Source: Candidatus Oxydemutatoraceae bacterium
GTDB taxonomy: Bacteria; Pseudomonadota; Gammaproteobacteria; Poriferisulfidales; Oxydemutatoraceae
DNA length: 64,000 nt
NCBI GenBank assembly: GCA_965226235.1
Contig: OZ245335.1
Coordinates: forward strand, 1,260,427 to 1,324,426
Direction: 5' to 3'
Shown here in pieces: positions 4,411-46,082 of this stretch. The stretch's first letter is position 1. Every line of letters starts with the position of its first letter. The translations under genes and the position numbers were made by a program. Below the pieces are notes generated by a model. The model was not told where the DNA came from, did no database searches, and worked only from the letters and a program-made list of their open reading frames with translations.

Positions 4411-5889
4411 GTGCTGCGCCACCTGCCCGTTATCGTTGTCGTGGCACCGCTTTTGAGTGCGCCGCTGTGCATTCTCTCCAATCGCTTCATGCCGGCACGC
4501 CTGATAGCACTGGGAACCTGCCTGCTGACTCTTGCATGCGCGATCACGATGCTCGCCGCAACCACGGATGGGTTCATATGGCGCTATGAACTGGGAGGAT
4601 GGGCCGCTCCCTGGGGTATCGTCTATCGAGTCGATGCGTTCAGTGCGCTGCTGGTACTGCTGATAGCCGGTATCGCCAGCGTCGTGGTTTTGTTTTCCGG
4701 TCGCCTCGCCACCCAGGAGATAGCCGGCAGGGAAACTTATTTCTTTGCCCTGTTCATGCTGGCTTGTGCCGGGTTTTTCGGAGTAGTCGTTACTGGCGAC
4801 CTGTTCAATATCTTTGTCTTCCTTGAAATCTGCGCGCTTGCTTCTTACGCATTGGTTGGGTTGAAAGGAGGCGATAAAGCACTGCTCGCCGCCTATCGTT
4901 ATCTGCTCATGGGATCCGTAGGAGCTACGTTTTTCCTGATCGGCATCGGCTACCTGTATATGATGACCGGCACGCTCAATCTCGAAGAGCTTGCTACGCA
5001 GCTCCCCGGGCTTACATCAAGCCGCACGGTGCTGGCGGCGATGGCTTTTATCGGCGCCGGACTGGCGATGAAAATCGCTTTGTTTCCTCTCCACTGGTGG
5101 TTGCCGAACGCATACACGTTTTCCTTTTCCCCGGTGTCGGCGCTACTCGCCGCCCTGTCTACCAAGGTCTCGATTTACCTGTTTATCCGATTGTTTTTCG
5201 GCGTGTTCGGCATCGATGCCGTTGCTGCGGAAAGCAGCTTCGACGTGGTTTTGTTCGGTCTATCTTCAGGTGCGATTTTTTTCGCGTCGGTGGCAGCAAT
5301 TTACCAAGACGACGTCAGACGCATCATGGCTTATTCAAGCATCTCGCAGATCGGCTTTATCATGCTTGGCGTCAGCCTGGTTTCCACGGCGGGGATAGGC
5401 GCGAGCGTAGTGTACCTGTTTAACCACGCGCTGATTAAATGCGGCTTGTTTCTTGCGCTGGGCTGTGTCGTTTACCGTTTTGGAAGTTGCCGGATTGTTG
5501 ATTTCGAGGGCCTCGGCAAACGCATGCCGTGGACGATGGCCGCGATCGTGATCGGTGGCCTGAGTCTCGTGGGTGTACCGCTTACTGCAGGATTCGTCGG
5601 CAAGTGGCAGCTTATCAGTGTCGCCTTTGAAGCGAACAGATGGCTCCCGGTGCTGGTGGTGCTTGCAGGGTCGCTATTGAGCCTGGTTTACGTGTGGAGA
5701 CTGACTGAAGCCGCGTACTTGCCACAGGCGCCTTCGGTTGAAGCAGAGAAGAATACGCGGTGTGAAGCACCGGCCGTCTTGCTGGTGCCGGTATGGCTTC
5801 TGATTGCATTGAATATTTACATAGGGATTGACTCGTCCAACCTCATCAGGATTGCGACGCAGGCAGCGCGCGGCGTTGTCGGAGAATAG
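4411..5889 (+). CDS. mrpD: NuoL/MrpD-family proton-conducting antiporter subunit, copy 1
   Basis: A 492 aa polytopic protein of the NADH-quinone oxidoreductase chain L/M/N (MrpD) family. Confidence 0.75.
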   Translation: MLRHLPVIVVVAPLLSAPLCILSNRFMPARLIALGTCLLTLACAITMLAATTDGFIWRYELGGWAAPWGIVYRVDAFSALLVLLIAGIASVVVLFSGRLATQEIAGRETYFFALFMLACAGFFGVVVTGDLFNIFVFLEICALASYALVGLKGGDKALLAAYRYLLMGSVGATFFLIGIGYLYMMTGTLNLEELATQLPGLTSSRTVLAAMAFIGAGLAMKIALFPLHWWLPNAYTFSFSPVSALLAALSTKVSIYLFIRLFFGVFGIDAVAAESSFDVVLFGLSSGAIFFASVAAIYQDDVRRIMAYSSISQIGFIMLGVSLVSTAGIGASVVYLFNHALIKCGLFLALGCVVYRFGSCRIVDFEGLGKRMPWTMAAIVIGGLSLVGVPLTAGFVGKWQLISVAFEANRWLPVLVVLAGSLLSLVYVWRLTEAAYLPQAPSVEAEKNTRCEAPAVLLVPVWLLIALNIYIGIDSSNLIRIATQAARGVVGE

Positions 5890-5895
5890 GCGGCA

Positions 5896-7341
5896 TTGAC
5901 CGAGATCACGCTGCAAATCACGCTGGCTTCGCCTTTCGCCTGCGCGTTACTGGCGGCGAGCCTCCGGCGCGGAGGGTATCAAACCGCGGTGCTGATAGTA
6001 CCGTTCATCACGCTGGTCGGCGTCGTGTTGCTGGCACTGCGCTTTGCCCTGTATGACGAAGGTGCGGCGTTGCCCCTGACGCAACTGATCGCTGGCATGA
6101 CGATCGGGTTCAAGGTGGAGGCATTGGGGCTGGTTTTCGCCCTGGTAGTCGCCGTTTTGTGGCCGATCAGCATGCTGTATTCCCTCTCTTACTGCGAGGC
6201 TGGTTCGCTCGATCACCGGCCGCGCTTTTTCGCTTGTTTCAGTCTGGCGATCGGAAGTGCTCTGGCTATGGCGTTCGCTGCCGACCTGCTGACGTTGTGG
6301 ATTTTTTACGAGGTATTGACGTTGAGCACCTACCCCTTGGTCGTGCATTATGGCGACGACCGGTCACGCGCAAGCGGTAGACTGTATCTTGGGTTTTTAC
6401 TTGGATCCTCGATACTGCTGTTTTTACCAGCGATAGTCTGGATTCAAGTCGCCTGCGGGACGCTGGAGTTCGCACCGGGCGGGGTGTCCCGGACCTGCAT
6501 CAGCGACAAGGAAGCGTCCTGGCTTTTGTTTATGCTGATCTTCGGGGCCGGCAAAGCGGCATTGATGCCGCTGCATCGCTGGCTGCCGGAGGCGATGGTC
6601 GCGCCGGCCCCGGTCAGCGCACTGTTGCACGCGGTCGCCGTGGTCAAGGCCGGGGTTTTTACGATTGCCACGGTTGTCGTTTATGTTTTCGGCTTTGAAC
6701 GCATGCATGCCATCGCCAGCGGTTGGCTGGTTTATGTCGCGGGCGCATCTGCCATACTCGCCTCACTGATCGCGCTACGCCAGAACGCGCTGAAGAAGAT
6801 GCTGGCGTATTCCACGATCAGCCAGTTGGCATACATCACTTTGGGGGTCGCGTTGTTAAAGCCGGCATTTTTCGGTGCGGTTTTGCATCTGGTCACGCAT
6901 GCTTTCGGCAAAATCACCCTGTTTTTCGCCGCTGGAGCCATTCAGAGTGTCACCGGAAAAGTGAAGATCAGTGATCTCAAGGGCATCGCGTATTCGATGC
7001 CGTGGACGATGGGCTGTTTCACCGTCGCTGCCTTGTCAATAATCGGAATACCACCACTGGCAGGGTTTGCCGGCAAATGGCTCTTGCTGCAGGGAGCAGT
7101 CGATTCCGGACATGATTTCGCGATCTGGACACTCATAGCAGGCATGGTGCTAAGTGCCGGTTATCTTATGCCGGTGGTGTACCGCGCCTACACGCGCGCC
7201 GATGCGGCAGTAGATACGGAACTGGTACAGGAAGAAGCGCCATTACCCATGTTGCTGGCGATGTTGTTACCGACCGGCGTCATGCTGATCATGTTTTTCT
7301 ACGCCAACGACATTGTTCGCTTTCTCGAGAGGATTGGATGA
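5896..7341 (+). CDS. NuoL/MrpD-family proton-conducting antiporter subunit, copy 2
   Basis: A 481 aa protein with the WLPEAM and HAVAVVKAGV motifs typical of MrpD/NuoM. Confidence 0.75.
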   Translation: MTEITLQITLASPFACALLAASLRRGGYQTAVLIVPFITLVGVVLLALRFALYDEGAALPLTQLIAGMTIGFKVEALGLVFALVVAVLWPISMLYSLSYCEAGSLDHRPRFFACFSLAIGSALAMAFAADLLTLWIFYEVLTLSTYPLVVHYGDDRSRASGRLYLGFLLGSSILLFLPAIVWIQVACGTLEFAPGGVSRTCISDKEASWLLFMLIFGAGKAALMPLHRWLPEAMVAPAPVSALLHAVAVVKAGVFTIATVVVYVFGFERMHAIASGWLVYVAGASAILASLIALRQNALKKMLAYSTISQLAYITLGVALLKPAFFGAVLHLVTHAFGKITLFFAAGAIQSVTGKVKISDLKGIAYSMPWTMGCFTVAALSIIGIPPLAGFAGKWLLLQGAVDSGHDFAIWTLIAGMVLSAGYLMPVVYRAYTRADAAVDTELVQEEAPLPMLLAMLLPTGVMLIMFFYANDIVRFLERIG

Positions 7342-7544
7342 AAAGCAAATGGTGGCCAGGTTTAGCGGTTGCGGCGGTGGCCGTCTTGCTACCTGAACTT
7401 TTCATCGACCGTGCCCGGCACATGACGATTGATGGATTCGGGTTTTATGCGTGGTTTGGTTGGGTGGCCTGTTTGCTGGTGGTAATCGTCGCGTTGCTCG
7501 TGGGGCGCGTGATCGAGCGCGGAGACGATTACTATGACGATTGA
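7338..7544 (+). CDS. Small two-TM membrane protein, translationally coupled within the mrp-like operon
   Basis: A 68 aa protein with 4 bp overlaps at both ends with the flanking MrpD-like genes. No homolog recognised. Confidence 0.35.
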   Translation: MKSKWWPGLAVAAVAVLLPELFIDRARHMTIDGFGFYAWFGWVACLLVVIVALLVGRVIERGDDYYDD

Positions 7545-9192
7545 GCTTGCCTGGTCGCCGGGATTACTGATTATTGCCAGCGCGGTACCGGCGCTTGTGT
7601 TTCGCGGTACTCCCAGAGCCGTTTTGCTACTTGCGCTACCGGTTCTAGCGTTGATCCTGGTTTGGATCGCGACCCCCGCTACAGCGGCGACAATCGAGTT
7701 TTTCGGTTATCCGCTACAGCCTTTCGGGGCGACCGAACTGGGACGTTTGTTTGCCACGGTGTTCATTTTCGCGCTGCTCGCCGGGCATGTATTCGCATTG
7801 CGCCATGCGCCTTCGTTCGAATTGGCGTGCGCTTGCCTTTATAGCGGCAGTGCCGTGTGCGTGACCCTGGTGGGAGACTTCCTGAGCCTGTTTATGTTCT
7901 GGGAAATAATGACGCTTGCTTCGAGCGGCATTCTGTTTTCAGCCGGTACGCGCGCCGCTCACGGTGCAACACTCCGCTACCTGCTGTTGCACCTGTTCGG
8001 CGGAATGCTGCTGCTGGGCGGGATTCTGGGGACGGCTGCCACCACGGGCGAAATTGCGCTACGCCCGTTACGTGCGGATGACGCCTATACCTGGATGATG
8101 CTTGCCGGTTTTCTGATCGGCGCTGGTGCTCCCCCTTTTTCCGCATGGGTCGCCGACGCCTATCCCGAGGCGAGCCCATCCGGCACCGTATACCTGTCCG
8201 CAGGCAAGACCAAAGCTGCGGTGTTCGCGTTACTCGCCGCGTTCCCGGGAGAAGCGATGCTGATACCAATCGGCGCCTATATGATTTTTTACGGGATTAT
8301 CTATGCGTTGCGTGAAAATGATATGCGCAGAATCCTCGCGTACACCACCGTCAACCAGGTTGGATTCATGCTGGTGGGCATTGGAATCGGCACTTCGCTG
8401 GCTCTCAACGGTGCTGTCGCCCACGCAGCCACACACATTGTCTACAAGGTCTTGCTCATGATGTCGGCAGGTAGCGTACTGTTCATGACCGGGAAGAGAA
8501 AATGCACCGAGCTCGGCGGCCTGTACCGCAGCATGCGTTTGACCACTGCCTGCGGGATTGTGGGCGTGTTATCCATCGCAGGGGCTCCCCTGACTTCGGG
8601 GTTCGTGTCCAAACCCATGATTATCGACGCCGCGCTCACCCAGCACCTTCCATGGCTTTGGTTCGCTCTGCTGGTGGCGTCGGCGGTGTTTTTACACGCA
8701 GGAGTCAAATTTCCGTGGTTTGTCTTCTTTCACAAGGATTCGGGGCTCAGGCCCGACGACCCGCCATGGAACATGCGTCTCGCGATGCTGGTTCTGGCGG
8801 CCTGCTGTTTGCTGACAGGGTTGTTCCCGCAATGGCTCTATGCATTGCTGCCCTGGTCTTCGGAGTATCAACCTTACACAGCCAGCCATGTCGTCACCCA
8901 GCTACAGTTGCTGGTTTTTTCCGCCATTGCTTTTTTCATGTTGCTGCCCTTGCTGCAGTGTTCACGCACCATCAGCCTGGACTTTGACTGGTTGTACCGT
9001 AGAGGCGGCGCACGGCTCTACGGCTCGTTGCTGAATCAACTGGCCACAACCGAACGGCTACGTGATGCCAGCTTGCGTCTTGTGGCAAGATTGAAACCGG
9101 CAGGCGCACCGATCGGGGAGTTGCAAAGCGGCTTGTCGATAAGATGGATGATCGCAGTGCTTGCATTGCTACTGCTACTGCATTACTTATAG
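7534..9192 (+). CDS. NuoL/MrpA/MrpD-family antiporter subunit, copy 3 (552 aa)
   Basis: Polytopic membrane protein with an MFWEIMTLAS motif of the complex I antiporter-like family. It is the last gene of the module. Confidence 0.7.
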   Translation: MTIELAWSPGLLIIASAVPALVFRGTPRAVLLLALPVLALILVWIATPATAATIEFFGYPLQPFGATELGRLFATVFIFALLAGHVFALRHAPSFELACACLYSGSAVCVTLVGDFLSLFMFWEIMTLASSGILFSAGTRAAHGATLRYLLLHLFGGMLLLGGILGTAATTGEIALRPLRADDAYTWMMLAGFLIGAGAPPFSAWVADAYPEASPSGTVYLSAGKTKAAVFALLAAFPGEAMLIPIGAYMIFYGIIYALRENDMRRILAYTTVNQVGFMLVGIGIGTSLALNGAVAHAATHIVYKVLLMMSAGSVLFMTGKRKCTELGGLYRSMRLTTACGIVGVLSIAGAPLTSGFVSKPMIIDAALTQHLPWLWFALLVASAVFLHAGVKFPWFVFFHKDSGLRPDDPPWNMRLAMLVLAACCLLTGLFPQWLYALLPWSSEYQPYTASHVVTQLQLLVFSAIAFFMLLPLLQCSRTISLDFDWLYRRGGARLYGSLLNQLATTERLRDASLRLVARLKPAGAPIGELQSGLSIRWMIAVLALLLLLHYL

Positions 9193-9262
9193 TCTGGAAC
9201 CTTATAACATGAGTGAGACCATGCTTCCTCCCCCGCAGACAGAAAACAAGGAACCGGTCTGA

Positions 9263-10165
9263 ATGTTTATTCTGGGTGTAGGAGCACCAAAAACAGGGAC
9301 GACCTGGCTCGCCGCGTATATAAGGCAATCACCCCGGTATGTGCGGTTTTGTGCAGAAAAAGAACAGCATGTCTGGGATCGCGTATGTATCCCATTAATG
9401 AAAGGACGGAAAAGAAAACTCCGCAGAATCTTGCAGGACTTGCTCCGTACCCGCCGCCGGTGGGACCATCTGCGGCAGTATATTGCGTTGTGGTTAATGG
9501 AAAAAATCCCGGCTTATTATTTTTACCGCCTGCAACGGACGCTTCGCAACAAGGAAAATATCACGCTGGATATCACCCCGGCTTACATGGGGCTGTCCAA
9601 AGAGGATTTCATCAAAATCAGAAACGGGCTGAAAAAATACGACATACGGACGAAAGTCGTGTTTCTCATGAGAGACCCTGTCGAAAGATGCATCAGCCAC
9701 TATGAAGCAGAAGAAGCATCACGCTTGAAGCGAGGCATCAACCTGTCCGGATCGGTGTTTGCATTACCGGACAAGGCAGGGCTGAAAAAATATTGTACAT
9801 TGGCAAAAAACAGGTTCAAAACAAGCTATCAAGATACGATCGCGAACCTGGAGGCTGTGTTTGCGCCGGAACAGTTGTTTTTCGGCATCTATGAAAACCT
9901 TTTCGAAGAACAGTCCATCGCCGCGCTGTCCGATTTCCTGGAATTACCCTATAATCCCGCGTTTGCCAAACGATGCATCAAGCCCGCGTTTTCCAAACGA
10001 CACATCAAGCCCACACAGTACCCCGATATAAATATCGACGACGACACAAGAAGATTCATCGCCGAAGAATACAGAAGCACCTATGCGTTTTGCGCAACCC
10101 GGTTTCCGGTAACCGGAAACTTGTGGAGAGGGTTCCAGTGGATCCGGACGAACGCCCCTTCCTGA
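9263..10165 (+). CDS. PAPS-dependent sulfotransferase-family protein, tandem copy 1
   Basis: The 5'-PSB motif GAPKTGTTW and the 3'-PB motif KVVFLMRDPVERCISHY correspond to PKSGTTW and KVVYVARNAKDVAVSYY in eukaryotic cytosolic sulfotransferases. Local GC is about 50%. Confidence 0.7.
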   Translation: MFILGVGAPKTGTTWLAAYIRQSPRYVRFCAEKEQHVWDRVCIPLMKGRKRKLRRILQDLLRTRRRWDHLRQYIALWLMEKIPAYYFYRLQRTLRNKENITLDITPAYMGLSKEDFIKIRNGLKKYDIRTKVVFLMRDPVERCISHYEAEEASRLKRGINLSGSVFALPDKAGLKKYCTLAKNRFKTSYQDTIANLEAVFAPEQLFFGIYENLFEEQSIAALSDFLELPYNPAFAKRCIKPAFSKRHIKPTQYPDINIDDDTRRFIAEEYRSTYAFCATRFPVTGNLWRGFQWIRTNAPS

Positions 10166-10222
10166 CTTGTTCAGCCCCCCGCAATCAAGGGTTCCCGTTC
10201 TGATCATACGCGGAGGATCTTC

Positions 10223-11173
10223 ATGTTTATTCTGGGTGTAGGAGCACCAAAAACAGGGACGACCTGGCTCGCCGCGTATATAAGGCAATCACCCCGGTAT
10301 GTGCGGTTTTGCGAAGAAAAAGAACAGCATGTCTGGGATCGCGTATGTATCCCATTAATGAAAGGACGGAAAAGAAAACTCCGCAGAATCTTGCCGGGCT
10401 TGCTCCGTACCCCCGGCCGCCGGTGGGACCGTCTGCGGCAGTATATTGCGTTGTGGTTAATGGAAAAAATCCCGGCTTATTACTTTTACCGCCTGCAACG
10501 GACGCTTCGCAACAAGGAAAATATCACGCTGGATATCACCCCGGCTTACATGGGGCTGTCCAAAGAGGATTTCATCAAAATCAGAAACGGGCTGAAAAAA
10601 TACGACATACGGACGAAAGTCGTGTTTCTCATGAGAGACCCTGTCGAAAAATGCATCAGCCACTATAAGAGCATCAGCTATCGGCACCTCAACACACAAG
10701 GAAAAGGAACCCTGGAGAAGCCTGCCCCGTACTGGTGGAAAGAAGTATTTCACTTGCATGGATCAGCGTCCGCATTAGCCGATACGGCAGGACTGAAAAA
10801 ATATTGTACATTGGCAGAAACCAGGTTCAAAACAAGCTATCAAGATACGATCGCGAACCTGGAGGCTGTGTTTGCGCCGGAACAGTTGTTTTTCGGCATC
10901 TATGAAAACCTTTTCGAAGAACAGTCCATCGCCGCGCTGTCCGATTCCCTGGAATTACCCTATAATCCCGCGTTTGCCAAACGATGCATCAATTCCGCGT
11001 TTGCCAAACGATGCATCAATCCCAATCTCATAAAGCACATTGATGTGGATGTCGACGACGACACAAGAAGATTCATCGCCGAAGAATACAGAAGCACCTA
11101 TGCGTTTTGCGCAACCCGGTTTCCGGTAACCCGGAAACTGTGGGGCGGTTTTCAATGGCTGGACCGGGCATAG
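10223..11173 (+). CDS. PAPS-dependent sulfotransferase-family protein, tandem copy 2. It is a paralog with a replaced central segment.
   Basis: Shares more than 90% identity with copy 1 apart from a mosaic region (HYEAEEASRLKRGINLSGSVFALPDKAG versus HYKSISYRHLNTQGKGTLEKPAPYWWKEVFHLHGSASALADTAG). Both copies keep the PSB and PB motifs. Confidence 0.7.
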   Translation: MFILGVGAPKTGTTWLAAYIRQSPRYVRFCEEKEQHVWDRVCIPLMKGRKRKLRRILPGLLRTPGRRWDRLRQYIALWLMEKIPAYYFYRLQRTLRNKENITLDITPAYMGLSKEDFIKIRNGLKKYDIRTKVVFLMRDPVEKCISHYKSISYRHLNTQGKGTLEKPAPYWWKEVFHLHGSASALADTAGLKKYCTLAETRFKTSYQDTIANLEAVFAPEQLFFGIYENLFEEQSIAALSDSLELPYNPAFAKRCINSAFAKRCINPNLIKHIDVDVDDDTRRFIAEEYRSTYAFCATRFPVTRKLWGGFQWLDRA

Positions 11174-11198
11174 CAGAAAGCGATCGACCACTGTCGAT

Positions 11199-13286
11199 TT
11201 ATACCTCTGCGTATCTGCCGACATCCCCCAGCCATCTGCGAATAAGCTTGTCGCAAGCATCCGGGTGGCATGCCAGCATATTGCCGGATATCTTCAACAC
11301 CCGCTCGAGCTGTTTCTCGTCGCGTGTCAGGTCAGCAATACGAAACTGCATCGCGCCAGTCTGTCGGGTGCCAAGAATTTCCCCCGGCCCGCGTATCTTC
11401 ATGTCTTCCTGCGCGATCTCAAACCCGTTGCACGTCCGGCGCATGATGTCGAGGCGCCGCCGCGCAGTGCTCGATAACGGTGGGTGATACAGTAGCGCGC
11501 AAGTGGCTTGCTTTACGCCGCGTCCAACTCGACCGCGCAACTGATGCAATTGCGCGAGTCCGAAGCGTTCTGCATTTTCAATGACCATCAGGTTGGCGTC
11601 GGGTATATCGACACCGACTTCGATCACTGTGGTCGCAACCAGCACCTGGGCTTGCTTGCTTTTGAACCTTGCTATCGCCTGCTCTTTCTCTTCGGCATTC
11701 ATCCGCCCGTGAAGCAAGGCAACGCTGACGTCGGGCATAGCCCGACATAACATTTCGAAAGTTGTCTGGGCCGTTTCGTAATACAGGGTATCTGATTTTT
11801 CAATCAGAGGGCACACCCAGTAAACCTGTCCTCCGCCGATGCAGGTTTTGCGGATGCGTCCGATGAGTTCCTTGCGGCGACTGTCCGGCAACACGATGGT
11901 TTTTACCGGCAGACGTCCGGGAGGGACTTCATCGATCACCGAGTAGTCAAGGTCGGCATACAAGGCCATAGCCAGACTCCGCGGGATCGGAGTTGCCGTC
12001 ATAATGAGTTGATGTGGTTGAAGACCCCCGGCTTCTCCCCTTTGCTTGAGTGCCAGCCGCTGGTGAACTCCAAACCGGTGCTGCTCATCTACGACGATCA
12101 ACGCCAGGCAATGGAATGCAACTTTTTCCTGAAACAAGGCGTGGGTGCCTACGATGATGTCGATTTCTCCGTTGCGCGCTTGATGCAGTACGGAGCGGCG
12201 TTCGGTCATTTTCTGTTTGCCTGCAAGGATACCGACACTCACTTCAAACGGATCGAACCAATCTTTCAGGTTGCGATAATGTTGCTCGGCCAGAATCTCT
12301 GTTGGGGCCATCATGGCCGCTTGACAGCTCGATTCGACTGCCTCGAGCATCGCTGCCACAGCGACAAGCGTTTTGCCTGAACCCACATCACCTTGCACGA
12401 GACGCATCATCGGCGTGTTTTTGCGAACATCGGCGCGGATAACCTCGATTACCCGGTGCTGAGCCCGCGTTAGCTCAAATGGTAATAGCCGCTGCAGCCG
12501 GTCGAACAGCTTCCCTTCAGGTTGCAGTGTCCGCGCAAACTGCCTCCGGGTCTCGCTGCGCATGCGCTTGAGGCTTAGACATTGCGACAGCATCTCTTCG
12601 AAGGCAAGCCGCTTTTGCATCGGGTGTTGCTTGTTTTGCAGCAGTTCAATGTCGGAGTCGGCAGGAGGGCGGTGGACGTAGAGGATGGCTTCTTGCAGGG
12701 AAAACGACAACTCTGCGTCCATGTAGTCGGCCGGTAACAGTTCTTCAAGGCCGTTTCCCGGCTTTGACAACCACCGCAACGCAGCGTCAGTAAATTTCCG
12801 CAGGTTGAATTGACTAATACCTTCGGTAGTCGGGTAAACGGGGGTGTAGCCGGTTGCCGGGCAGCTTTTATCGTAAGGGCCTACGAACTGGTAATCAGGA
12901 TGAATCATTTCAAGCCGGGGGGTGCTCCCCTGGACCTTGCGCAATACACCGAAGCAACGGATGCGGCTCCCCGGACGCAGACTGCTTTGCTGTGCACCCG
13001 AGAAGTGGAAAAAGCGCAGCGACAACTCGGCGGTACCATCGTCGATGACAACCAGCAACATGCGCCGCCCCCGGTAAACAACCCGATTTTTTACGACATT
13101 GCCTTCAACCAGGGCCTCCTGGCTGGCGTGCAGCAAAGAGATGGGGCTGATCCGGGTTCGGTCCTGGTAATGGTCCGGCAGGTGAAAAAGCAGATCCTCA
13201 ACATGGCAGATGTGGAGACGTTTCAGCTTTTCTGCGACCACCCTGCCAACGCCTTGAAGCTCGGTGATGGGCGTCATAACGAGCAA
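11199..13286 (-). CDS. recG: ATP-dependent DNA helicase RecG
   Basis: A 695 aa protein with an N-terminal wedge domain. The Walker A motif is GDVGSGKT and the DEQH box is VVDEQHRFG. It belongs to the conserved gmk-rpoZ-spoT-recG cluster. Confidence 0.9.
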   Translation of the reverse strand: MLVMTPITELQGVGRVVAEKLKRLHICHVEDLLFHLPDHYQDRTRISPISLLHASQEALVEGNVVKNRVVYRGRRMLLVVIDDGTAELSLRFFHFSGAQQSSLRPGSRIRCFGVLRKVQGSTPRLEMIHPDYQFVGPYDKSCPATGYTPVYPTTEGISQFNLRKFTDAALRWLSKPGNGLEELLPADYMDAELSFSLQEAILYVHRPPADSDIELLQNKQHPMQKRLAFEEMLSQCLSLKRMRSETRRQFARTLQPEGKLFDRLQRLLPFELTRAQHRVIEVIRADVRKNTPMMRLVQGDVGSGKTLVAVAAMLEAVESSCQAAMMAPTEILAEQHYRNLKDWFDPFEVSVGILAGKQKMTERRSVLHQARNGEIDIIVGTHALFQEKVAFHCLALIVVDEQHRFGVHQRLALKQRGEAGGLQPHQLIMTATPIPRSLAMALYADLDYSVIDEVPPGRLPVKTIVLPDSRRKELIGRIRKTCIGGGQVYWVCPLIEKSDTLYYETAQTTFEMLCRAMPDVSVALLHGRMNAEEKEQAIARFKSKQAQVLVATTVIEVGVDIPDANLMVIENAERFGLAQLHQLRGRVGRGVKQATCALLYHPPLSSTARRRLDIMRRTCNGFEIAQEDMKIRGPGEILGTRQTGAMQFRIADLTRDEKQLERVLKISGNMLACHPDACDKLIRRWLGDVGRYAEV

Positions 13287-13305
13287 CTATATGGCGGGCA
13301 AAAAA

Positions 13306-13692
13306 TTACTTCCCAATCACCATGATCGCATCCGCCTCGATACGTGCCCCTCGCGGCAGGGACGCCACACCAACGACGGCACGCGCCGGGTAAGGGCGCG
13401 CAAAATACTCTCCCATTATTTCATTCACATGCTGAAAATTTTCAAGGTCGGTAAGGAACACGTTCAGCTTGACGATATCATCCAGACCGCCGTTTGCGGC
13501 CTCGGCGACCGCCTTCAGGTTGTCAAAAACCCTGCGAATATGCACTTTGATATCGCCTTCGACCAGTTCCATCGTATCGGGTTCCAGCGGAATCTGACCC
13601 GAAAGGTAAACGACGTTATGTACAACGACCGCTTGCGAGTAGGCACCAATCGCCTGCGGTGCCGTTTGCGTGTCGATAATGCGTTTGCTCAT
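13306..13692 (-). CDS. ridA: RidA/YjgF-family reactive-intermediate deaminase
   Basis: A 128 aa protein with the typical YjgF/TdcF pattern (AIGAYSQAV...VKLNVFLTD...[16 protein letters not shown]). Confidence 0.85.
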
Positions 13693-13733
13693 GGAAGTGC
13701 CTCTGGAAAATCAATTGGCTAACCAAGCCAGGG

Positions 13734-15971
13734 TTATCTTACGCGCGACACCTGAACATCCTTTGAAACACTGCGTATCTTGCGAATGATATCGGCCAGA
13801 TGCTTGCGGTTCTTGACGCTGATCGTGAAATTCAGCAATGCCATTGCGCCAGGACGTTCTTCGATCGATATATTTTCGATATTCGAGCCCATCTGCGCGA
13901 TCTTGTCCGCAATGACCGCGAGCATCCCGCGACGATGGTGGGTAACGGCGCGAATCGCGGCCGAGTATTCCGCCCCGGGCGGTTCGTTTTTCGACCACTG
14001 TAGTAGAAGATCCTGTCCATTTTTCGTGTTGTGTCGGTTGATATTGTGGCAGTTGTCACGATGCACGACCAGACCCTTCCCCAAATTCAGGATTCCGATG
14101 ATGCTGTCCCCCGGGATCGGGTGACAACACTTTGCGTACGTAACTACGATACCTTCGGTCCCGGTGATCTCGAGCGGGGTTTCTGCAACGTGGCGATCCT
14201 GGAACGGCTCGAGTAGCCTCCGGGTAATCAATGAAGGTATCTGGTTTCCCAGACCGATCTCGCGGAATAACTCCTCCGAGTGTTTGAGGCCAAGTTCCCG
14301 CAACACGGTTGACCATTGCCCGGACCTGATTTCATCGAGTCTGCTGCCGTGGCTGCTGAGCGCGTTGTCCAGCAGGCGCTTGCCAAGCTTGACGGAAGAT
14401 TTGTCGCTGGTCTTTTTCAGGCAGTTATGAATCGCGGCACGTGCCTTTGCCGTGACCGTAAATCCCAGCCACAACGGCGTCGGACGCATCTTTTTATCGG
14501 TGACGATTTCGACGCTCTGCCCGTTTTTAAGCTCGGTGCTCAAAGCGGCGTGGCGATTGTCTATCAGTGCTTTCGCGCAGGACAGCCCGATGTCGGTGTG
14601 TACCGCGAAAGCAAAATCAAGCGCGGTCGCACCGCGCGGCAGGTTCATGATCTCCCCTTGCGGCGTAAACACATACACCTCATCGGGGAACAGATCGACC
14701 TTGACGTTTTCAAGAAACTCAGCCGAACTGCCGGCGTGTCTATGCAACTCCATCAGGCGGTGGGTCCATGCCTGCGCTAACGAATGACCTTTGCCGCTGC
14801 CGCCTTCGCCGGTTTTGTACATGGCGTGCGCGGCGATGCCCTGCTCGGCGACATGATCCATATCCTGGGTGCGGATCTGGATTTCCATGGGTGCCGCGTG
14901 CGTGCCGAACAGCACCGTATGCAGTGATTGATAGCCGTTGCTTTTGGGGATGGCGATATAGTCCTTGAAGCACCCCGGCTTCGGTGTATACAAGCTGTGA
15001 ACGAGACCCAGCGCACGGTAGCAATCATCGACGCGATCGACGATCAACCGCAAGGCAAACAGATCAAGGACTTGCGAAAACTTCAAATGCTTTTCCCGCA
15101 TTTTTTTGTAAACGCCGTAAACGCTTTTGCGCCGACTCTCGATTTCATGGGAAATGTCCGCCAGCGCAAGAAGCTTATTGATGCTACGTTCCATGCCGAT
15201 CATCAGCTTTTTGCAGCGCCGCTCACTTTTCTTGATCGCTTCGGACAACCCCCGATAGCGCAACGGGTACAGTGTCTTGAATCCCAACTCTTCGAATTCA
15301 CGGCGCAGTCTGTCCATGCCGAGACGTTGCGCGATCGGCGCGTAGATCTCGAGCGTCTCTCTGGCAACAAGCTTTTGCTTGTGCGCGGAGAGATGGCGCA
15401 GGGTACGCATATTGTGCAGTCGATCGATCAGCTTCAGTAAAATCACGCGCCGGTCTTTCGACATGGCGAGGATCATCTTCTGGAAGTTGGCAGCCTGGCT
15501 GGATTCCCGGGTTGCGAACTGCAGGTGGTCTATCTTGCTTACACCGTCGACAATTTTTGCGACTTCGGCGCCAAACTTCCTGGCGAGCCGATGTCTCGTA
15601 ATATGGGTATCTTCCAGGACATCGTGCAGGATCCCGGCGATGATGGTCGTGGCGTCAAACCGCAGTTGCGCCATCAGTTGAGCGACTTTTACCGGATGGG
15701 AAATATAGGGTTCTCCAGACATACGCATTTGCCCGCTGTGCGCTTTGGCACTGAACAAATAAGCCTGGCGGATCGCGTCTATGTCCTGGGGTGAGAGATA
15801 AGCCTCGAGCGTGGTTTCAAGCTCATCAAGCAACTCGCCGCCCTCCACCTCGGGCAACGGGCGACCGGTCTTGTTCCCGGAACGTTTGTGCAGCAACGAC
15901 CTGCCGGCATCTCCTCCGATTCTTCCAGCCGCATCAGAAGAAGTTGCGGAACGAGCGCGCATGGTTGCCAA
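13734..15971 (-). CDS. spoT: Bifunctional (p)ppGpp synthetase/hydrolase SpoT/RelA-family. The ORF has about 40 extra N-terminal residues and the true start is uncertain.
   Basis: The HD domain (HPVKVAQLMA...HDVLEDT), RelA/SpoT synthetase domain, TGS and ACT domains are all present. It lies between rpoZ and ridA. Confidence 0.9.
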   Translation of the reverse strand: MATMRARSATSSDAAGRIGGDAGRSLLHKRSGNKTGRPLPEVEGGELLDELETTLEAYLSPQDIDAIRQAYLFSAKAHSGQMRMSGEPYISHPVKVAQLMAQLRFDATTIIAGILHDVLEDTHITRHRLARKFGAEVAKIVDGVSKIDHLQFATRESSQAANFQKMILAMSKDRRVILLKLIDRLHNMRTLRHLSAHKQKLVARETLEIYAPIAQRLGMDRLRREFEELGFKTLYPLRYRGLSEAIKKSERRCKKLMIGMERSINKLLALADISHEIESRRKSVYGVYKKMREKHLKFSQVLDLFALRLIVDRVDDCYRALGLVHSLYTPKPGCFKDYIAIPKSNGYQSLHTVLFGTHAAPMEIQIRTQDMDHVAEQGIAAHAMYKTGEGGSGKGHSLAQAWTHRLMELHRHAGSSAEFLENVKVDLFPDEVYVFTPQGEIMNLPRGATALDFAFAVHTDIGLSCAKALIDNRHAALSTELKNGQSVEIVTDKKMRPTPLWLGFTVTAKARAAIHNCLKKTSDKSSVKLGKRLLDNALSSHGSRLDEIRSGQWSTVLRELGLKHSEELFREIGLGNQIPSLITRRLLEPFQDRHVAETPLEITGTEGIVVTYAKCCHPIPGDSIIGILNLGKGLVVHRDNCHNINRHNTKNGQDLLLQWSKNEPPGAEYSAAIRAVTHHRRGMLAVIADKIAQMGSNIENISIEERPGAMALLNFTISVKNRKHLADIIRKIRSVSKDVQVSRVR

Positions 15972-16046
15972 TCAGCAACCCCAATTGCAGATCATGCTTC
16001 TCCTCATCGGGGTGCTTTCCGGAAATGAATCCTGCTATGGGATGGC

Positions 16047-16580
16047 CTATCCTGTGGTGTCGGTATCGGTTTTTTTCGCATTGCCGCCGTTGGTTCCTGT
16101 AACGGGCAAATCGATCTCTTCGCTCGTGAATGCAGCGCCCTGCAGGGTGCTTTCCTTTTGGCCCGGATTCACCCCGACACCGCTACCGTTCTCGCCCTGT
16201 GGATGACCCTCCACCGAATCGGTCGCCTTCGGCGGCAACATGCCCGCCGAGGGTTCAGCGCCACCCGGAGCAACTTCATCCTCCTCTATCTCGCCAAGCG
16301 CACGGGCCATGTTTCTTTGATTCATGAGCCCATGGTTGATCAACTCAGCCAACTCCGAGTCTGCGGTGGCGTCTTTGATCAGCGGTTCGGTGAAGACCTC
16401 CTTGCCAACCAGACCAGCGGCAATCTCACGCAGTGCGATAATGCTCGACTTCTCGCCGCTGTCTTCGATCCGGGGGGTGCTCCCCTCCTGTAATTGCCGC
16501 GCCCTGCGGCTCGCAACCAACACCAACTGGAAGTGGTTGCTGATTTTCTCCAGACAATCCTCAATAGTAATCCTTGCCAT
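16047..16580 (-). CDS. rpoZ: DNA-directed RNA polymerase omega subunit with a long Gly/acidic C-terminal extension
   Basis: The N-terminus [31 protein letters not shown] matches the omega consensus [29 protein letters not shown]. Total length is 177 aa against about 90 aa typical. Confidence 0.8.
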
Positions 16581-16644: not shown

Positions 16645-17268
16645 TCAGCTCATGGATGGATCCCCATCGATCCTTCGCAGCGCTGTTTCGACCAAGGCCA
16701 ACTCGGTCTGGGTGGGTGGCTGGTTCAGCAATAATCGTTTCAGGGCCTTGCAGGTGGTGTCAAAGTCTTCGTTGACAATCCGCGCGTCAAATTCTCCGTG
16801 GTGGCGTATTTCTTCGCGTGCCTTGCCAAGTCGGTACCCTATAGCTTCTGGGGAATCCTGGCAACGTCGTTGCAGGCGAGCTTCCAGCGATTCGATCGAA
16901 GGCGGCAAGATGAATATGGAGAAGGCGCTTGCAAAATTGCGCTTGACCTGTTGCGCGCCCTGCCAATCAATTTCAAGCACGATCGAAATCCCTTCGGCAA
17001 TTTTTTTTTCGACCTCATCTCGCGCGGTGCCATAGAAATGCCGAAAAACTTCGGCATGCTCGAGAAAACGCCCGGCGTCTTTCATCCGGTGAAACTCCTG
17101 GGCGGAAACAAAATAATAGTCGCGACCGTGCTTCTCGTTTTCTCGTGGAGGGCGCGTCGTGTAAGAGACCGAGACACGAAACAGCGGCAGGTCGGCCAGC
17201 ACCCGTTTCAGCAGCGAGGTTTTCCCGACGCCCGAGGCACCCGCAACTATGAACAGCTTCCCGGTCAC
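16645..17268 (-). CDS. gmk: Guanylate kinase
   Basis: P-loop GASGVGKTSL, the GMP-binding SVSYTTRPPRENEKHGRDYYFV, and a length of 207 aa. Confidence 0.9.
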   Translation of the reverse strand: MTGKLFIVAGASGVGKTSLLKRVLADLPLFRVSVSYTTRPPRENEKHGRDYYFVSAQEFHRMKDAGRFLEHAEVFRHFYGTARDEVEKKIAEGISIVLEIDWQGAQQVKRNFASAFSIFILPPSIESLEARLQRRCQDSPEAIGYRLGKAREEIRHHGEFDARIVNEDFDTTCKALKRLLLNQPPTQTELALVETALRRIDGDPSMS

Positions 17269-44087: not shown

Positions 44088-46082
44088 ATGAATATCCCCC
44101 TCGGGAAAAAATTGTTCTTTTCGGCAATCTACCTCGCGTTAATTACCGGCGCGCATTTTTCCGGATTAAGCCTCGTCAGCGGTAACCTGTGGATCAAGGT
44201 CTTCTGGAAAGATTTGCAAATCCTTCTGCTGTCAGCATTGGTGCTGATGGTTGTTTATATCGTCTCATTCTCGGCTTTTTTACTCTCCGGAAAAAAACGG
44301 GAACTGCGTTGGCCAATAGTGTGTTTCCTGTTCAGTCTTGGAGTGGTGTGTTTTTCGTACATGATGCTCTTTCCCAAAGGTGTATTTCTCCAGAAGGTCA
44401 GTGTCAGTGTGGTCTTGTTCTCATGGATTGCAATTGCTCTGGTTTTTTTCCAGACAGAAGCAACTTTCCTGTCGAAAGTCATGCGTTATGTTCTGGGAAT
44501 CATTTTGTTTGCCATTAGCATGACCTCGATATACAAGCATCAGGATCTGCTGGAGATGCTTTTTTATCCGAAGGCTCTGATTGCAGATCAGTCTGTTGAG
44601 AAAAAATTCGACAAGAAAGAATCAAAGATTCGCACAAGTTTTTATAACCTGTCCGCCATAGAGTATTCCATTTCAGATTACTACATACCGGCAAAACTGG
44701 CAAATATTCCCAGTTACCTTGGAGTGATCAATGACAAAAATTTTCTTGTCATTGATCGTCTCGGCAACATGTTTCATTTGTATCTGAAAAGCAACGCAAA
44801 AGAAAAGGCAACATTTGAAAAAGAGAATCTCTATAGAAGGATGCTGGCGGCAAGGTTCCCGATCAATTACCGGGAGGTCAACAAGTTCAACAAGTTCAAC
44901 AAGTCTTATTTTCGGGTACATGATTTGTATATAGAAAGAGAGAATGAGAGTGGAGAGCAACGATCACTGTACGTTTCCCATAGTTTCTGGAACGCTGAAA
45001 AGGAATGTTTTACTGTAAGAATCACAAAGATGACCCAGGATATTTCGGTGCTGCTGGAATCGCACGCCACACCGACGTGGCGTACGCTTTATGAAAGCAC
45101 TCCTTGCTTTCACAGATTATCTTCCGGCCACCAGGCAGGCGGCAGAATTGTCGGGATGGATGAGGAGAGTTTGCTGTTTACAATCGGCGATCACGGGTTT
45201 GATTCCGCAGAAGATCCGGGGAACTTTCCTCAGGATATTGATACGGCGTATGGGAAAATCTGGAAGATTAACCGTACTACCGGAGAATCTGACATGATTT
45301 CTCTGGGACACCGAAATCCTCAGGGGCTATATCGCGCGCCCAACGGAACAATTTGGTCGACCGAGCATGGGCCTGCAAGCGGCGACGAATTAAACAAGGT
45401 AAATGTCGGTGCCAACTATGGATGGCCACACGCATTGTACGGGACAAGTTACGGTGCGGAAACTTTGCGCGGCGAGGTAATTCAGAATGACCACGGAGAT
45501 TATGAGCATCCTGTGTTTGCATGGGTGCCTGCAATTGCTGTATCCGAGTTGATTGGAGTCGAAGGAGATTTGTTCCCGCTGTGGAAAGATAACCTCCTGG
45601 TTTCTTCCCTGAAAGCACAAACCTTGTTTCGCCTGCAAATACATGAAGATCGTGTTGTTTATAGTGAAGCCATTAAAATAGATAAAAGAATCCGGGATTT
45701 GGCACAGACTTCCAATGGAGAACTCCTTCTCTGGACAGATGACCAATCGCTGGTGCGATTGTTGCACAAGGAACAGCCCACAATAAGCAAGGGCGAACAG
45801 ATTTTCCAGGAAAAATGTGCTGCTTGTCATAACATGTGGCCTGATCATGCGCACGGGTTCGGTCCGAATCTACACAATGTATACGCAAGCAAAATTGCAA
45901 GACACTCCGACTACAACTACTCAAAAGCATTATTGGCACGAGCTCAGGACTCTTGGACCCGAAAAAATCTTGATCTTTTTCTGGAAAACTCCCTGCGTTT
46001 TGCGTCTGGCACTACCATGCAGCAAATAGAAATATCCGCCGCCGAAAGACAGACATTGATTCAATATATGAGGAACAATTGA
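44088..46082 (+). CDS. Membrane-anchored quinohemoprotein, copy 1. It has five N-terminal TM helices, a PQQ-dependent soluble glucose/sorbosone dehydrogenase (sGDH-family) beta-propeller domain, and a C-terminal class I cytochrome c domain.
   Basis: sGDH motifs HQAGGRIVGMDEESLLFTIGDHG and GHRNPQGLYRAPNGTIWSTEHGP...GANYGWP are present. The cytochrome c2-like domain has CAACH...GPNLHNVYASKIA...GTTM. The N-terminal 160 aa are strongly hydrophobic. The gene is AT-rich (about 45% GC). Confidence 0.8.
   Translation: MNIPLGKKLFFSAIYLALITGAHFSGLSLVSGNLWIKVFWKDLQILLLSALVLMVVYIVSFSAFLLSGKKRELRWPIVCFLFSLGVVCFSYMMLFPKGVFLQKVSVSVVLFSWIAIALVFFQTEATFLSKVMRYVLGIILFAISMTSIYKHQDLLEMLFYPKALIADQSVEKKFDKKESKIRTSFYNLSAIEYSISDYYIPAKLANIPSYLGVINDKNFLVIDRLGNMFHLYLKSNAKEKATFEKENLYRRMLAARFPINYREVNKFNKFNKSYFRVHDLYIERENESGEQRSLYVSHSFWNAEKECFTVRITKMTQDISVLLESHATPTWRTLYESTPCFHRLSSGHQAGGRIVGMDEESLLFTIGDHGFDSAEDPGNFPQDIDTAYGKIWKINRTTGESDMISLGHRNPQGLYRAPNGTIWSTEHGPASGDELNKVNVGANYGWPHALYGTSYGAETLRGEVIQNDHGDYEHPVFAWVPAIAVSELIGVEGDLFPLWKDNLLVSSLKAQTLFRLQIHEDRVVYSEAIKIDKRIRDLAQTSNGELLLWTDDQSLVRLLHKEQPTISKGEQIFQEKCAACHNMWPDHAHGFGPNLHNVYASKIARHSDYNYSKALLARAQDSWTRKNLDLFLENSLRFASGTTMQQIEISAAERQTLIQYMRNN

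Follow-up and report, generated by a model that had tools for sequence, protein, structure and literature searches.

The 64,000-nucleotide window analyzed here, taken from contig OZ245335.1 of a Candidatus Oxydemutatoraceae bacterium, carries a tandem pair of genes whose products resemble sulfotransferases of the type that uses 3'-phosphoadenosine 5'-phosphosulfate (PAPS). Copy A (9263 to 10165, 300 amino acids, isoelectric point 9.8) and copy B (10223 to 11173, 316 amino acids, isoelectric point 9.7) lie head-to-tail on the forward strand. They were delineated from their open reading frames (ORFs), Pfam matches, and AlphaFold2 models, together with fold neighbors for copy A. Within the 57-bp spacer that separates them (10166 to 10222, forward strand), GGAGGA stands 6 nucleotides before the start codon of copy B, and no features resembling attC sites or insertion sequences (IS) are present. 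On one side of the pair, the last Proton_antipo_M (mrp-type) gene ends at 9192, and on the other a convergent recG has its stop codon at 11199. Both proteins are strongly basic (about 17% lysine plus arginine) and are devoid of an N-terminal signal or anchor, with the P-loop starting at residue 7. A preliminary description of the locus, made from the DNA letters, had proposed two such ORFs of mosaic relationship between mrp and recG, and this arrangement is borne out.

The G+C content of the region from 9263 to 11173 is 0.493, compared with 0.560 for the whole window and 0.55 to 0.59 for the flanking genes, and at third codon positions the pair reaches 0.57 to 0.58 against 0.64 to 0.73 in its neighbors. 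The low-GC islet that had been described is therefore real, although its surroundings are at 0.56 and not at the 0.60 first given.

Enzyme type and active-site residues

Assignment to the sulfotransferase superfamily begins with the profile search that had been proposed as a check. Both copies exceed the gathering scores of PF00685 (40.4 bits for copy A and 27.8 for copy B; cut-off, 22) and PF13469 (31.8 and 34.4 bits; cut-off, 27). No NCBIfam model matches either copy, and no family among the PADLOC anti-phage models does so up to an E value of 0.01. The motifs behind the earlier assignment are likewise found in both proteins, with GAPKTGTTW at residues 7 to 15 and KVVFLMRDPVE(R/K)CISHY further downstream. 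On the forward strand of copy A, the 5'-phosphosulfate-binding (5'-PSB) loop GVGAPKTGTTW is encoded at 9275 to 9307, the catalytic motif K33-E34-Q-H36-V-W-D39-R40 at 9359 to 9382, and the 3'-phosphate-binding (3'-PB) motif KVVFLMRDPVERCISHY, which includes R137 and S145, at 9653 to 9703.

These residues can be placed by alignment with human heparan-sulfate 3-O-sulfotransferase-3 (3-OST-3), in which K10 corresponds to K162, E34 to E184, H36 to H186, D39 to D189, and R40 to R190, and R137 and S145 correspond to the Arg and Ser of the 3'-PB motif. The latter two stand eight residues apart at the start of a helix (RxPxxxxxS), and their counterpart in 3-OST-3 is RDPVTRAIS. In that enzyme, Glu184 acts as the catalytic base, and Lys162, Arg166, Glu184, His186, Asp189, Lys215, Gln255, Lys368, and Arg370 are important for activity, while Lys259 lies at the active site and contacts the acceptor (PMC8341778). 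E34, G7, G12, T13, R137, and S145 do not vary in an alignment of 42 family members, and K10 is conserved in at least 90% of them. Copy B keeps K10, E34, H36, and D39, and its R138 and S146 match R137 and S145 of copy A, such that neither window copy has lost a residue to which catalysis or PAPS binding is mapped.

The segment that would carry the catalytic histidine of cytosolic sulfotransferases (SULTs) reads D103-I104-T105-P106-A107-Y108, and no family member has a histidine there. Cytosolic SULTs also share a C-terminal GxxGxxK motif (RKGxxGDWK). Direct reading of the C-terminal third of the window proteins (DDDTRRFIAEEYRSTYAFCATRFPVTGNLWRGFQW) reveals no such motif. Because the histidine position reads ITPAY while the invariant glutamate aligns with Glu184, the sequences place the pair with the glutamate-base type and not with the SULTs. 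The description of the genes as eukaryote-like cytosolic sulfotransferases consequently has to be abandoned, as the whole superfamily carries 5'-PSB and 3'-PB motifs and the nearest structures are 3-OSTs. It had further been suggested that loss of the catalytic His or Lys would speak against a sulfotransferase. The 5'-PSB lysine is present in both copies and the SULT histidine is absent, yet a test based on the histidine would wrongly reject these genes, since the family has an invariant glutamate in its stead.

Structure prediction is in line with this placement and with the alpha/beta fold of sulfotransferases. The AlphaFold2 models are of high confidence overall (copy A, mean predicted local distance difference test [pLDDT] score of 87 and predicted template modeling score of 0.87; copy B, 86 and 0.86), with low confidence confined to the variable segment HV2, described below, and the repeat-encoded insertion (pLDDT below 50 for copy A residues 240 to 251). 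All 34 Foldseek matches in the PDB at an E value of 1e-3 or lower are sulfotransferases. Human 3-OST-3 ranks first (E value of about 4e-6, template modeling [TM] score of 0.50 to 0.55), followed by the OLS and CurM domains, TPST1/2, 3RNL, 3-OST-5 and 3-OST-1, and NDST1, and the first cytosolic SULT appears at rank 30. When a sequence profile was compared with solved chains, 3RNL was closest (E value of 1.5e-15) and 3-OST-3 came next (3e-6, over residues 96 to 242 only). The proteins thus resemble heparan-sulfate 3-O- and N-sulfotransferases in how they are likely to work, and they can be filed neither as members of the 3-OSTs nor as cytosolic SULTs.

Mosaic differences between the two copies

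Protein identity between copies A and B is 81% overall, and their framework DNA is 98 to 99% identical from essentially the ATG onward. The preliminary description had given more than 90% identity except for one central segment. Several divergent patches are found: two of the three segments that we label HV1, HV2, and HV3, namely HV2 and HV3, the last 16 or so codons, and codons 58 to 69. In the numbering of copy A, codons 1 to 147 show two synonymous and seven nonsynonymous changes and one extra codon, with five of the changes clustered at codons 58 to 69. HV2 (codons 148 to 173) is replaced and is 16 codons longer in copy B, codons 174 to 239 contain three nonsynonymous changes, HV3 (codons 240 to 258) is heavily diverged, and codons 259 to 284 are identical before the two sequences part again over the last 16 or so codons.

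HV2 occupies 78 nucleotides in copy A (9704 to 9781) and 126 nucleotides in copy B (codons 149 to 190, 10667 to 10792), both on the forward strand. Its 3' half can still be aligned in frame at about 60% nucleotide identity, and because this abuts flanks that are 98 to 99% identical, the boundaries are sharp. Over 25 amino acids, the HV2 of copy A is 72 to 73% identical to the copies on a related contig (L002, described below), with which it shares an ancestral type, compared with 29% identity to the HV2 of copy B. A search of the window, the fetched loci (L001 to L091), and the 197 fetched non-RecG proteins revealed no donor for the latter, and its first 30 or so residues match nothing in the same material. 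On these comparisons, copy A retains the older cassette and copy B carries a replacement.

HV3 holds the 27-bp repeats that had been noted in both copies, and both are recovered by Tandem Repeats Finder on the forward strand. The repeat of copy A (9956 to 10012; 2.1 copies, 90% matches) encodes PAFAKRCIK/PAFSKRHIK and is assigned to HV3 at 9980 to 10036, and that of copy B (10964 to 11023; 2.2 copies, 93% matches) encodes PAFAKRCIN/SAFAKRCIN and is assigned to HV3 at codons 257 to 277 (10991 to 11053). Among family members, only the two window copies show this duplication of nine residues (PAFAKRCIK). Mutagenesis by a diversity-generating retroelement was considered as a source of the variable blocks and rejected, as these have been exchanged as a whole and with indels, and there is no reverse transcriptase gene nearby.

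When anchored on the exactly matching 3'-PB motif and mapped onto 3-OST-3, the patches that differ between A and B appear to coincide with segments that contact the acceptor. HV1, a long basic helical hairpin at residues 44 to 81 (12 lysines and arginines in 40 residues), begins directly after D39-R40, the counterparts of Asp189-Arg190. At the start of HV2, residues 149 and 153 would be the counterparts of Gln255 and Lys259 in 3-OST-3. FNKT of 3-OST-3 lines up with an Asn-x-Ser column at residue 240, and Lys366 to Arg370 line up with the residues after it, which make up HV3. The wider family shows its highest entropy and most indels in the same three segments (about residues 41 to 80, 151 to 180, and 231 to 260). 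We infer that copies A and B have diverged in acceptor specificity.

Insertion between mrp and recG

A fragment of a sister genome, found through its RecG (86% identical), gives a view of the site without the pair. In this fragment (L087), 177 bp separate recG from the last mrp (Proton_antipo_M) gene, with no sulfotransferase genes at the site. By blastn, homology between the fragment and the window stops at 9155 and restarts at 11195, such that about 2.04 kb in the window stands in place of an mrp-recG spacer of about 210 bp. Since recG lies directly beside mrp in the sister genome, the islet at 9156 to 11194, with boundaries placed to within about 40 bp by blastn, the gene table of the fragment, and the drop in G+C content from 0.56 to 0.49, is a lineage-specific insertion of about 2 kb. 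A more distant relative (L089, a circular contig of 1.74 Mb with 72% RecG identity) holds other small genes between recG and mrp, and the spacer is therefore variable within the lineage. In that spacer, a short ORF with a RecG_dom3_C match (12230 to 12475), which looks like a duplicated recG 3' fragment, lies directly downstream of the full recG and is followed by a SnoaL-like gene.

A short-read contig obtained independently (L088) is 99.96% identical to the window from 11102 to 16143. Because this match ends where the stretch repeated between A and B starts, it supports both the recG junction and the duplication. No attC-like sites, IS ends, integrase, target-site duplications, or flanking direct repeats were found around the pair. 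The spacers of 57 to 70 bp have no attC-like structure, and neither an integron cassette array nor another recognizable mobile element is apparent. Phage records contain no protein match to the sulfotransferases, and plasmid records give no DNA match and only Roseobacter-group proteins at 24 to 33% identity, with no NodH-bearing or otherwise characterized sulfotransferase replicon among the matches.

Regarding expression signals, a match to a sigma-70-like promoter, TTGCTA-16-TATAGT, lies just upstream of copy A on the forward strand (9166 to 9193). It is a weak consensus match only, and the three promoter-type sites found, against 2.3 expected, are not a significant excess. No forward-strand terminator was found between mrp and copy A, and an Rfam scan of the window gave no match.

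Further observations on the window and the sister fragment concern other loci. A second low-GC tandem duplicate lies at 44088 to 46082 and 46951 to 48954 of the window. Its two products (664 and 667 amino acids, 99% identical) have an N-terminal membrane region, a glucose/sorbosone dehydrogenase domain (PF07995), and a C-terminal cytochrome c, and what distinguishes them is an additional KFN unit within a KFNKFNK repeat; the G+C content is 0.45 and that of third codon positions is 0.50. Tandem duplication of low-GC accessory genes may be a habit of this genome. In the sister fragment, a fragment of an IS1595-type transposase and MT-A70 and N6_N4_Mtase methyltransferase genes lie between gmk and rpoZ (L087, 4349 to 6597). 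The window counterparts (ORFs 16645 to 17268 and 16047 to 16580) appear adjacent, which, judged by ORF sizes only, suggests a further strain-specific indel.

Tandem arrays in related genomes

A search of 5.8 billion clusters returned 51 homologues, and the close ones (48 to 59% identity) come only from three contigs, all from long-read metagenome assemblies. Three tandem copies are found on a 2.43-Mb contig (L001) and six, with a period of about 1.06 kb, on L002, in both cases between lspA and fmt. A single copy (L003) lies downstream of a glmU/SIS-domain gene pair and beside IS fragments. Together with the window pair, all 12 copies on the four contigs are intact, full-length ORFs, with those of L002 probably starting 7 codons further upstream, at a conserved ATG. 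In every genome, the G+C content of the array is 8 to 14 points below that of its flanks, and third codon positions are likewise low in G+C in the three other genomes of the clade as they are in the window. None of the four loci adjoins a polyketide synthase (PKS) gene, a nonribosomal peptide synthetase (NRPS) gene, or a candidate substrate-peptide gene.

The frameworks of these copies cluster by genome, with 94 to 100% identity within and 55 to 76% between genomes. HV1 and HV2, on the other hand, fall into types that are 6 to 36% identical to each other and are combined in mosaic fashion, and the HV2 types are shared across genomes. Along the six L002 copies, the order of HV1 types is a, a, b, c, c, b and that of HV2 types is a, a, b, b, b', b''. 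A four-gamete test finds 1031 of the 4950 site pairs in this array incompatible, corresponding to at least 12 recombination events. Coverage of L002 is only 3x, which makes singleton errors likely, but these create no incompatible informative sites. Three of its copies (9243 to 10151, 12376 to 13242, and 13393 to 14259) have substitutions in the catalytic motif, with W38L and D39N in copy 1 and both H36R and D39N in each of copies 4 and 5. G12A is present in the P-loop of copies 1, 2, 3, and 6. These variants could be inactive copies or errors of the 3x-coverage assembly.

The surroundings of two of these loci deserve description in their own right. On L001, a 23-nucleotide poly-C tract (9913 to 9935), with none expected by chance, lies 66 bp upstream of the first sulfotransferase gene. 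It is a possible slipped-strand switch, with a homopolymer length that is uncertain in a long-read assembly. At 2 to 4 kb upstream of the same array are two tandem PF03407 (nucleotide-diphospho-sugar transferase-like) genes, 86% identical (5653 to 6675 and 6846 to 7853), and disrupted transposase ORFs (HTH_28/rve-like; 8290 to 9480) separate these from the array. No PF03407 homologue is present in the window, L002, L003, L087, or L089. On L003 (2449 to 6126), the single copy has IS fragments (rve_3) on one side and, on the other, a SIS-domain gene preceded by glmU-like genes and atpC. This is the stretch downstream of glmS, into which elements commonly insert, as at attTn7. IS remnants adjoin only the L001 and L003 loci and not the window pair.

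Wider family and genomic context

An exhaustive profile search recovered 1,963 cluster representatives (clusters at 50% identity) at an E value below 1e-30. Named genomes among the matches listed belong to marine Alphaproteobacteria, Planctomycetota, Actinomycetota, and Synechococcus, with identities of at most 36%. Of 10 wider-family loci examined, the members of which are 27 to 36% identical to the window proteins, 6 have polysaccharide genes as neighbors. One combines GT2, GT4, and Alg14/13-like genes with a Sulfotransfer_2 gene (L084), one carries a CysN/CysC fusion and an ABC exporter (L085), and one has GT4, WecG, and Bac_transf genes (L086). Two are Roseobacter-group plasmids with GT4, flippase, ManC, and UDP-sugar dehydrogenase genes (L090 and L091), and in the last an epimerase/dehydratase gene accompanies a flippase gene (L016). 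Because 6 of 10 family contexts are polysaccharide clusters, a carbohydrate is the leading candidate for the acceptor. At another of the 10 loci, in a Pirellulales genome (L011, 7046 to 10834), recG is likewise the gene immediately upstream of a family member (34% identity), which is probably a coincidence.

The preliminary description had assigned no acceptor to the pair and had set it apart from Dsr-type sulfur oxidation. Both positions agree with the present analysis, and a literature search on sulfotransferases in sulfur-oxidizing symbionts returned nothing relevant.

Interpretation and alternative explanations

When these results are brought together, the explanation that we favor, and regard as somewhat probable, is that of an acquired tandem pair of glutamate-base PAPS sulfotransferases with diverged acceptor loops that most probably act on a glycan. 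A low-GC cassette would have entered the lineage horizontally, into the mrp-recG spacer, and its gene would then have been duplicated in tandem. Either gene conversion or a very recent duplication could have kept the framework nearly identical, while the segments predicted to form the acceptor cleft diverged, HV1 slightly, HV2 completely, and HV3 with a nine-residue duplication. By homology, the proteins may be cytoplasmic O-sulfotransferases that use PAPS and a hydroxyl acceptor. K10 and the P-loop would hold the 5'-phosphosulfate, R137 and S145 (within RDPVERCIS) would hold the 3'-phosphate, and E34, aided by H36 and D39, would deprotonate the acceptor hydroxyl for in-line sulfuryl transfer. 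A and B would most likely sulfate two acceptors, or two positions of one acceptor, the most probable being a sugar of a cell-surface glycan or of its lipid-linked precursor.

Several observations weigh against this explanation. Similarity to the 3-OSTs is remote (16 to 19% identity and a TM score of about 0.5), and the mapping of the variable segments onto 3-OST-3 is a sequence alignment at low identity. The equivalent of Lys215 is Ile104, in place of a lysine before T-P-S-Y, and the region of Lys368 and Arg370 aligns with the variable, low-confidence HV3, with no clear equivalent of KGR. Copy A has a lysine at residue 240, where at least 90% of the family has asparagine, and copy B has R143K (R142 in the numbering of copy A) in the 3'-PB helix. 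Framework differences between the copies amount to 10 nonsynonymous and 2 synonymous changes, a ratio that also fits relaxed constraint. With respect to the acceptor, no glycosyltransferase or polysaccharide gene lies beside the window pair, and a crude six-frame motif scan, limited to the 64-kb window, found no APS kinase, ATP sulfurylase, CysD, CysH, or CysQ. Finally, 4 of the 10 wider-family loci (L011, L021, L026, and L053) lie outside polysaccharide clusters.

The acceptor could accordingly be something other than a carbohydrate, with A and B still being active sulfotransferases: a protein tyrosine (as for TPST or RaxST-like enzymes), a lipid, a polyketide, or a small-molecule hydroxyl (as in activating sulfation of the CurM/OLS type or in sulfated lipids and pigments). 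TPST1/2, OLS, and CurM are among the top structural neighbors at E values near those of the 3-OSTs, and TPST1/2 and the OLS/CurM sulfotransferase domains use a glutamate base as well. The lack of glycan genes near the pair would fit such an acceptor, as would the four loci outside polysaccharide clusters, one of which adjoins a carotenoid oxygenase gene, and the very basic HV1 could be a binding site for an acidic peptide or for the surface of a membrane. Against this, the best function-assigned matches in both sequence and structure are carbohydrate enzymes, polysaccharide clusters make up the majority of the family contexts examined, and PKS, NRPS, and substrate-peptide genes are missing beside the four clade loci. 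We consider a non-carbohydrate acceptor unlikely.

The arrays in related genomes invite a broader hypothesis, in which, within a clade of uncultured sulfur-oxidizing Gammaproteobacteria, a mobile low-GC cassette amplifies to arrays of up to six copies, with HV1, HV2, and HV3 being exchanged by recombination in the manner of cassettes and the catalytic framework homogenized. Every strain would thereby possess its own changeable range of sulfation specificities, a bacterial counterpart of the 3-OST isoforms that would place differing sulfation patterns on a surface glycan under selection by phages or a host. As a whole, this seems to us rather unlikely. A related proposal is that the locus is a contingency-type diversification locus, in which amplification and loop exchange continually change surface sulfation under selection by phages, grazers, or a host. 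Copy numbers of 1, 2, 3, and 6 in four related contigs are in its favor, as are the mosaic of HV1 and HV2 types with a minimum of 12 recombination events in L002, the sharing of HV2 types across genomes whose frameworks are homogenized within each genome, the poly-C tract upstream of the first L001 copy, and the IS remnants adjoining two loci. However, none of the loci contains machinery for targeted mutagenesis (reverse transcriptase or invertase), the 27-bp repeat preserves the reading frame and so cannot switch expression, PADLOC gives no match, and the assembly of L002 has only 3x coverage. Ordinary neofunctionalization after duplication would explain the window pair equally well, and we hold a contingency locus to be quite improbable.

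It might also be argued that A and B have no function and are mere passengers on a cassette that was acquired and duplicated recently and is drifting to decay. Such a view could draw on the orphan location in a spacer that is variable in L089 too, on the excess of nonsynonymous changes in the framework, on the substitutions at K240 of copy A and in the 3'-PB helix of copy B, and on the catalytic-motif substitutions in L002 copies 1, 4, and 5. On the other side, 12 of 12 copies are full-length, the window copies keep all mapped catalytic and PAPS residues, and copy B has a good Shine-Dalgarno sequence. Moreover, framework identity of 55 to 76% across genomes compared with less than 30% in the variable patches is the pattern of a constrained core with selected loops. 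We regard decay as very unlikely. That one gene was mis-assembled as two is scarcely credible: tandem repeats are error-prone in assembly and the short-read contig does break at the repeat, but the copies differ in HV2 (78 versus 126 nucleotides), in HV3, in their 3' ends, and in their upstream spacers, and are thus not collapsed reads of one gene, and independently assembled relatives also carry arrays.

Under the favored explanation of an acquired, diverged sulfotransferase pair, the proteins belong to a known superfamily and to an uncharacterized bacterial subfamily, and what is unusual about them is evolutionary, namely a mobile low-GC gene that amplifies in tandem and diversifies its predicted acceptor loops. 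Bacterial carbohydrate-type sulfotransferases are poorly characterized, and this subfamily of about 2,000 clusters is without any member of known acceptor. The window pair constitutes a natural experiment, with near-identical catalytic frameworks differing almost only in the predicted acceptor loops, and specificity determinants should for this reason be directly testable by loop swaps. If the arrays of the relatives vary surface sulfation, they would represent a new means by which free-living or symbiotic sulfur oxidizers diversify their surfaces, and would connect assimilatory PAPS chemistry with organisms best known for dissimilatory sulfur metabolism. Otherwise, the pair would represent an ordinary acquired accessory gene that was duplicated.

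Comparison with known systems

The closest solved protein by sequence, the uncharacterized 3RNL of Alicyclobacillus acidocaldarius, shares GxxKxGT, KE-H-F, RNPVDRxxS, and a conserved Asn-x-Ser with the window proteins. It is without the long HV1 hairpin and, as it carries no function assignment, it is no guide to the acceptor. TPST1/2 and the CurM and OLS domains are structural neighbors with similar E values, but their TM scores are lower (0.35 to 0.49), and the window offers no substrate-peptide or PKS context. Cytosolic SULTs (SULT1/2) have in common with the pair the superfamily fold, the 5'-PSB and 3'-PB motifs, and the PF00685 score above cut-off. They are set apart by the catalytic histidine (TH-P, where the pair has ITPAY), by GxxGxxK, and by ranking no higher than 30 among the structural neighbors.

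Polysaccharide-cluster sulfotransferases of PF13469/PF00685, such as those of the Roseobacter-group plasmids, are of the same subfamily (27 to 36% identity) and are set among GT2 and GT4 genes, Wzx-type flippases, ABC exporters, WecG, Bac_transf, and, in one case, CysN/CysC. In the searched records, no biochemical characterization of these relatives was found. They differ from the window pair and its close relatives in being single genes within biosynthetic clusters, whereas the copies described here form stand-alone tandem arrays in low-GC islets that lack glycan genes, except for the two PF03407 genes near the L001 array.

The best structural neighbors remain the 3-OSTs (3-OST-1, -3, and -5; 1T8T, 6XL8, 3UAN, and 3BD9). 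Differences are evident in that the window proteins are bacterial and predicted to be cytoplasmic, with no signal anchor or disulfide loop, have the HV1 hairpin (residues 44 to 81) inserted after the catalytic motif, carry isoleucine for Lys215, and show no evident Lys368/Arg370 pair. The features held in common are the P-loop lysine, E-x-H-x-x-D(R), TP(S/A)Y, and the 3'-PB helix with RDPVxRxxSxY. As with copies A and B, the paralogous isoforms of the 3-OSTs differ from one another in segments of the acceptor cleft.

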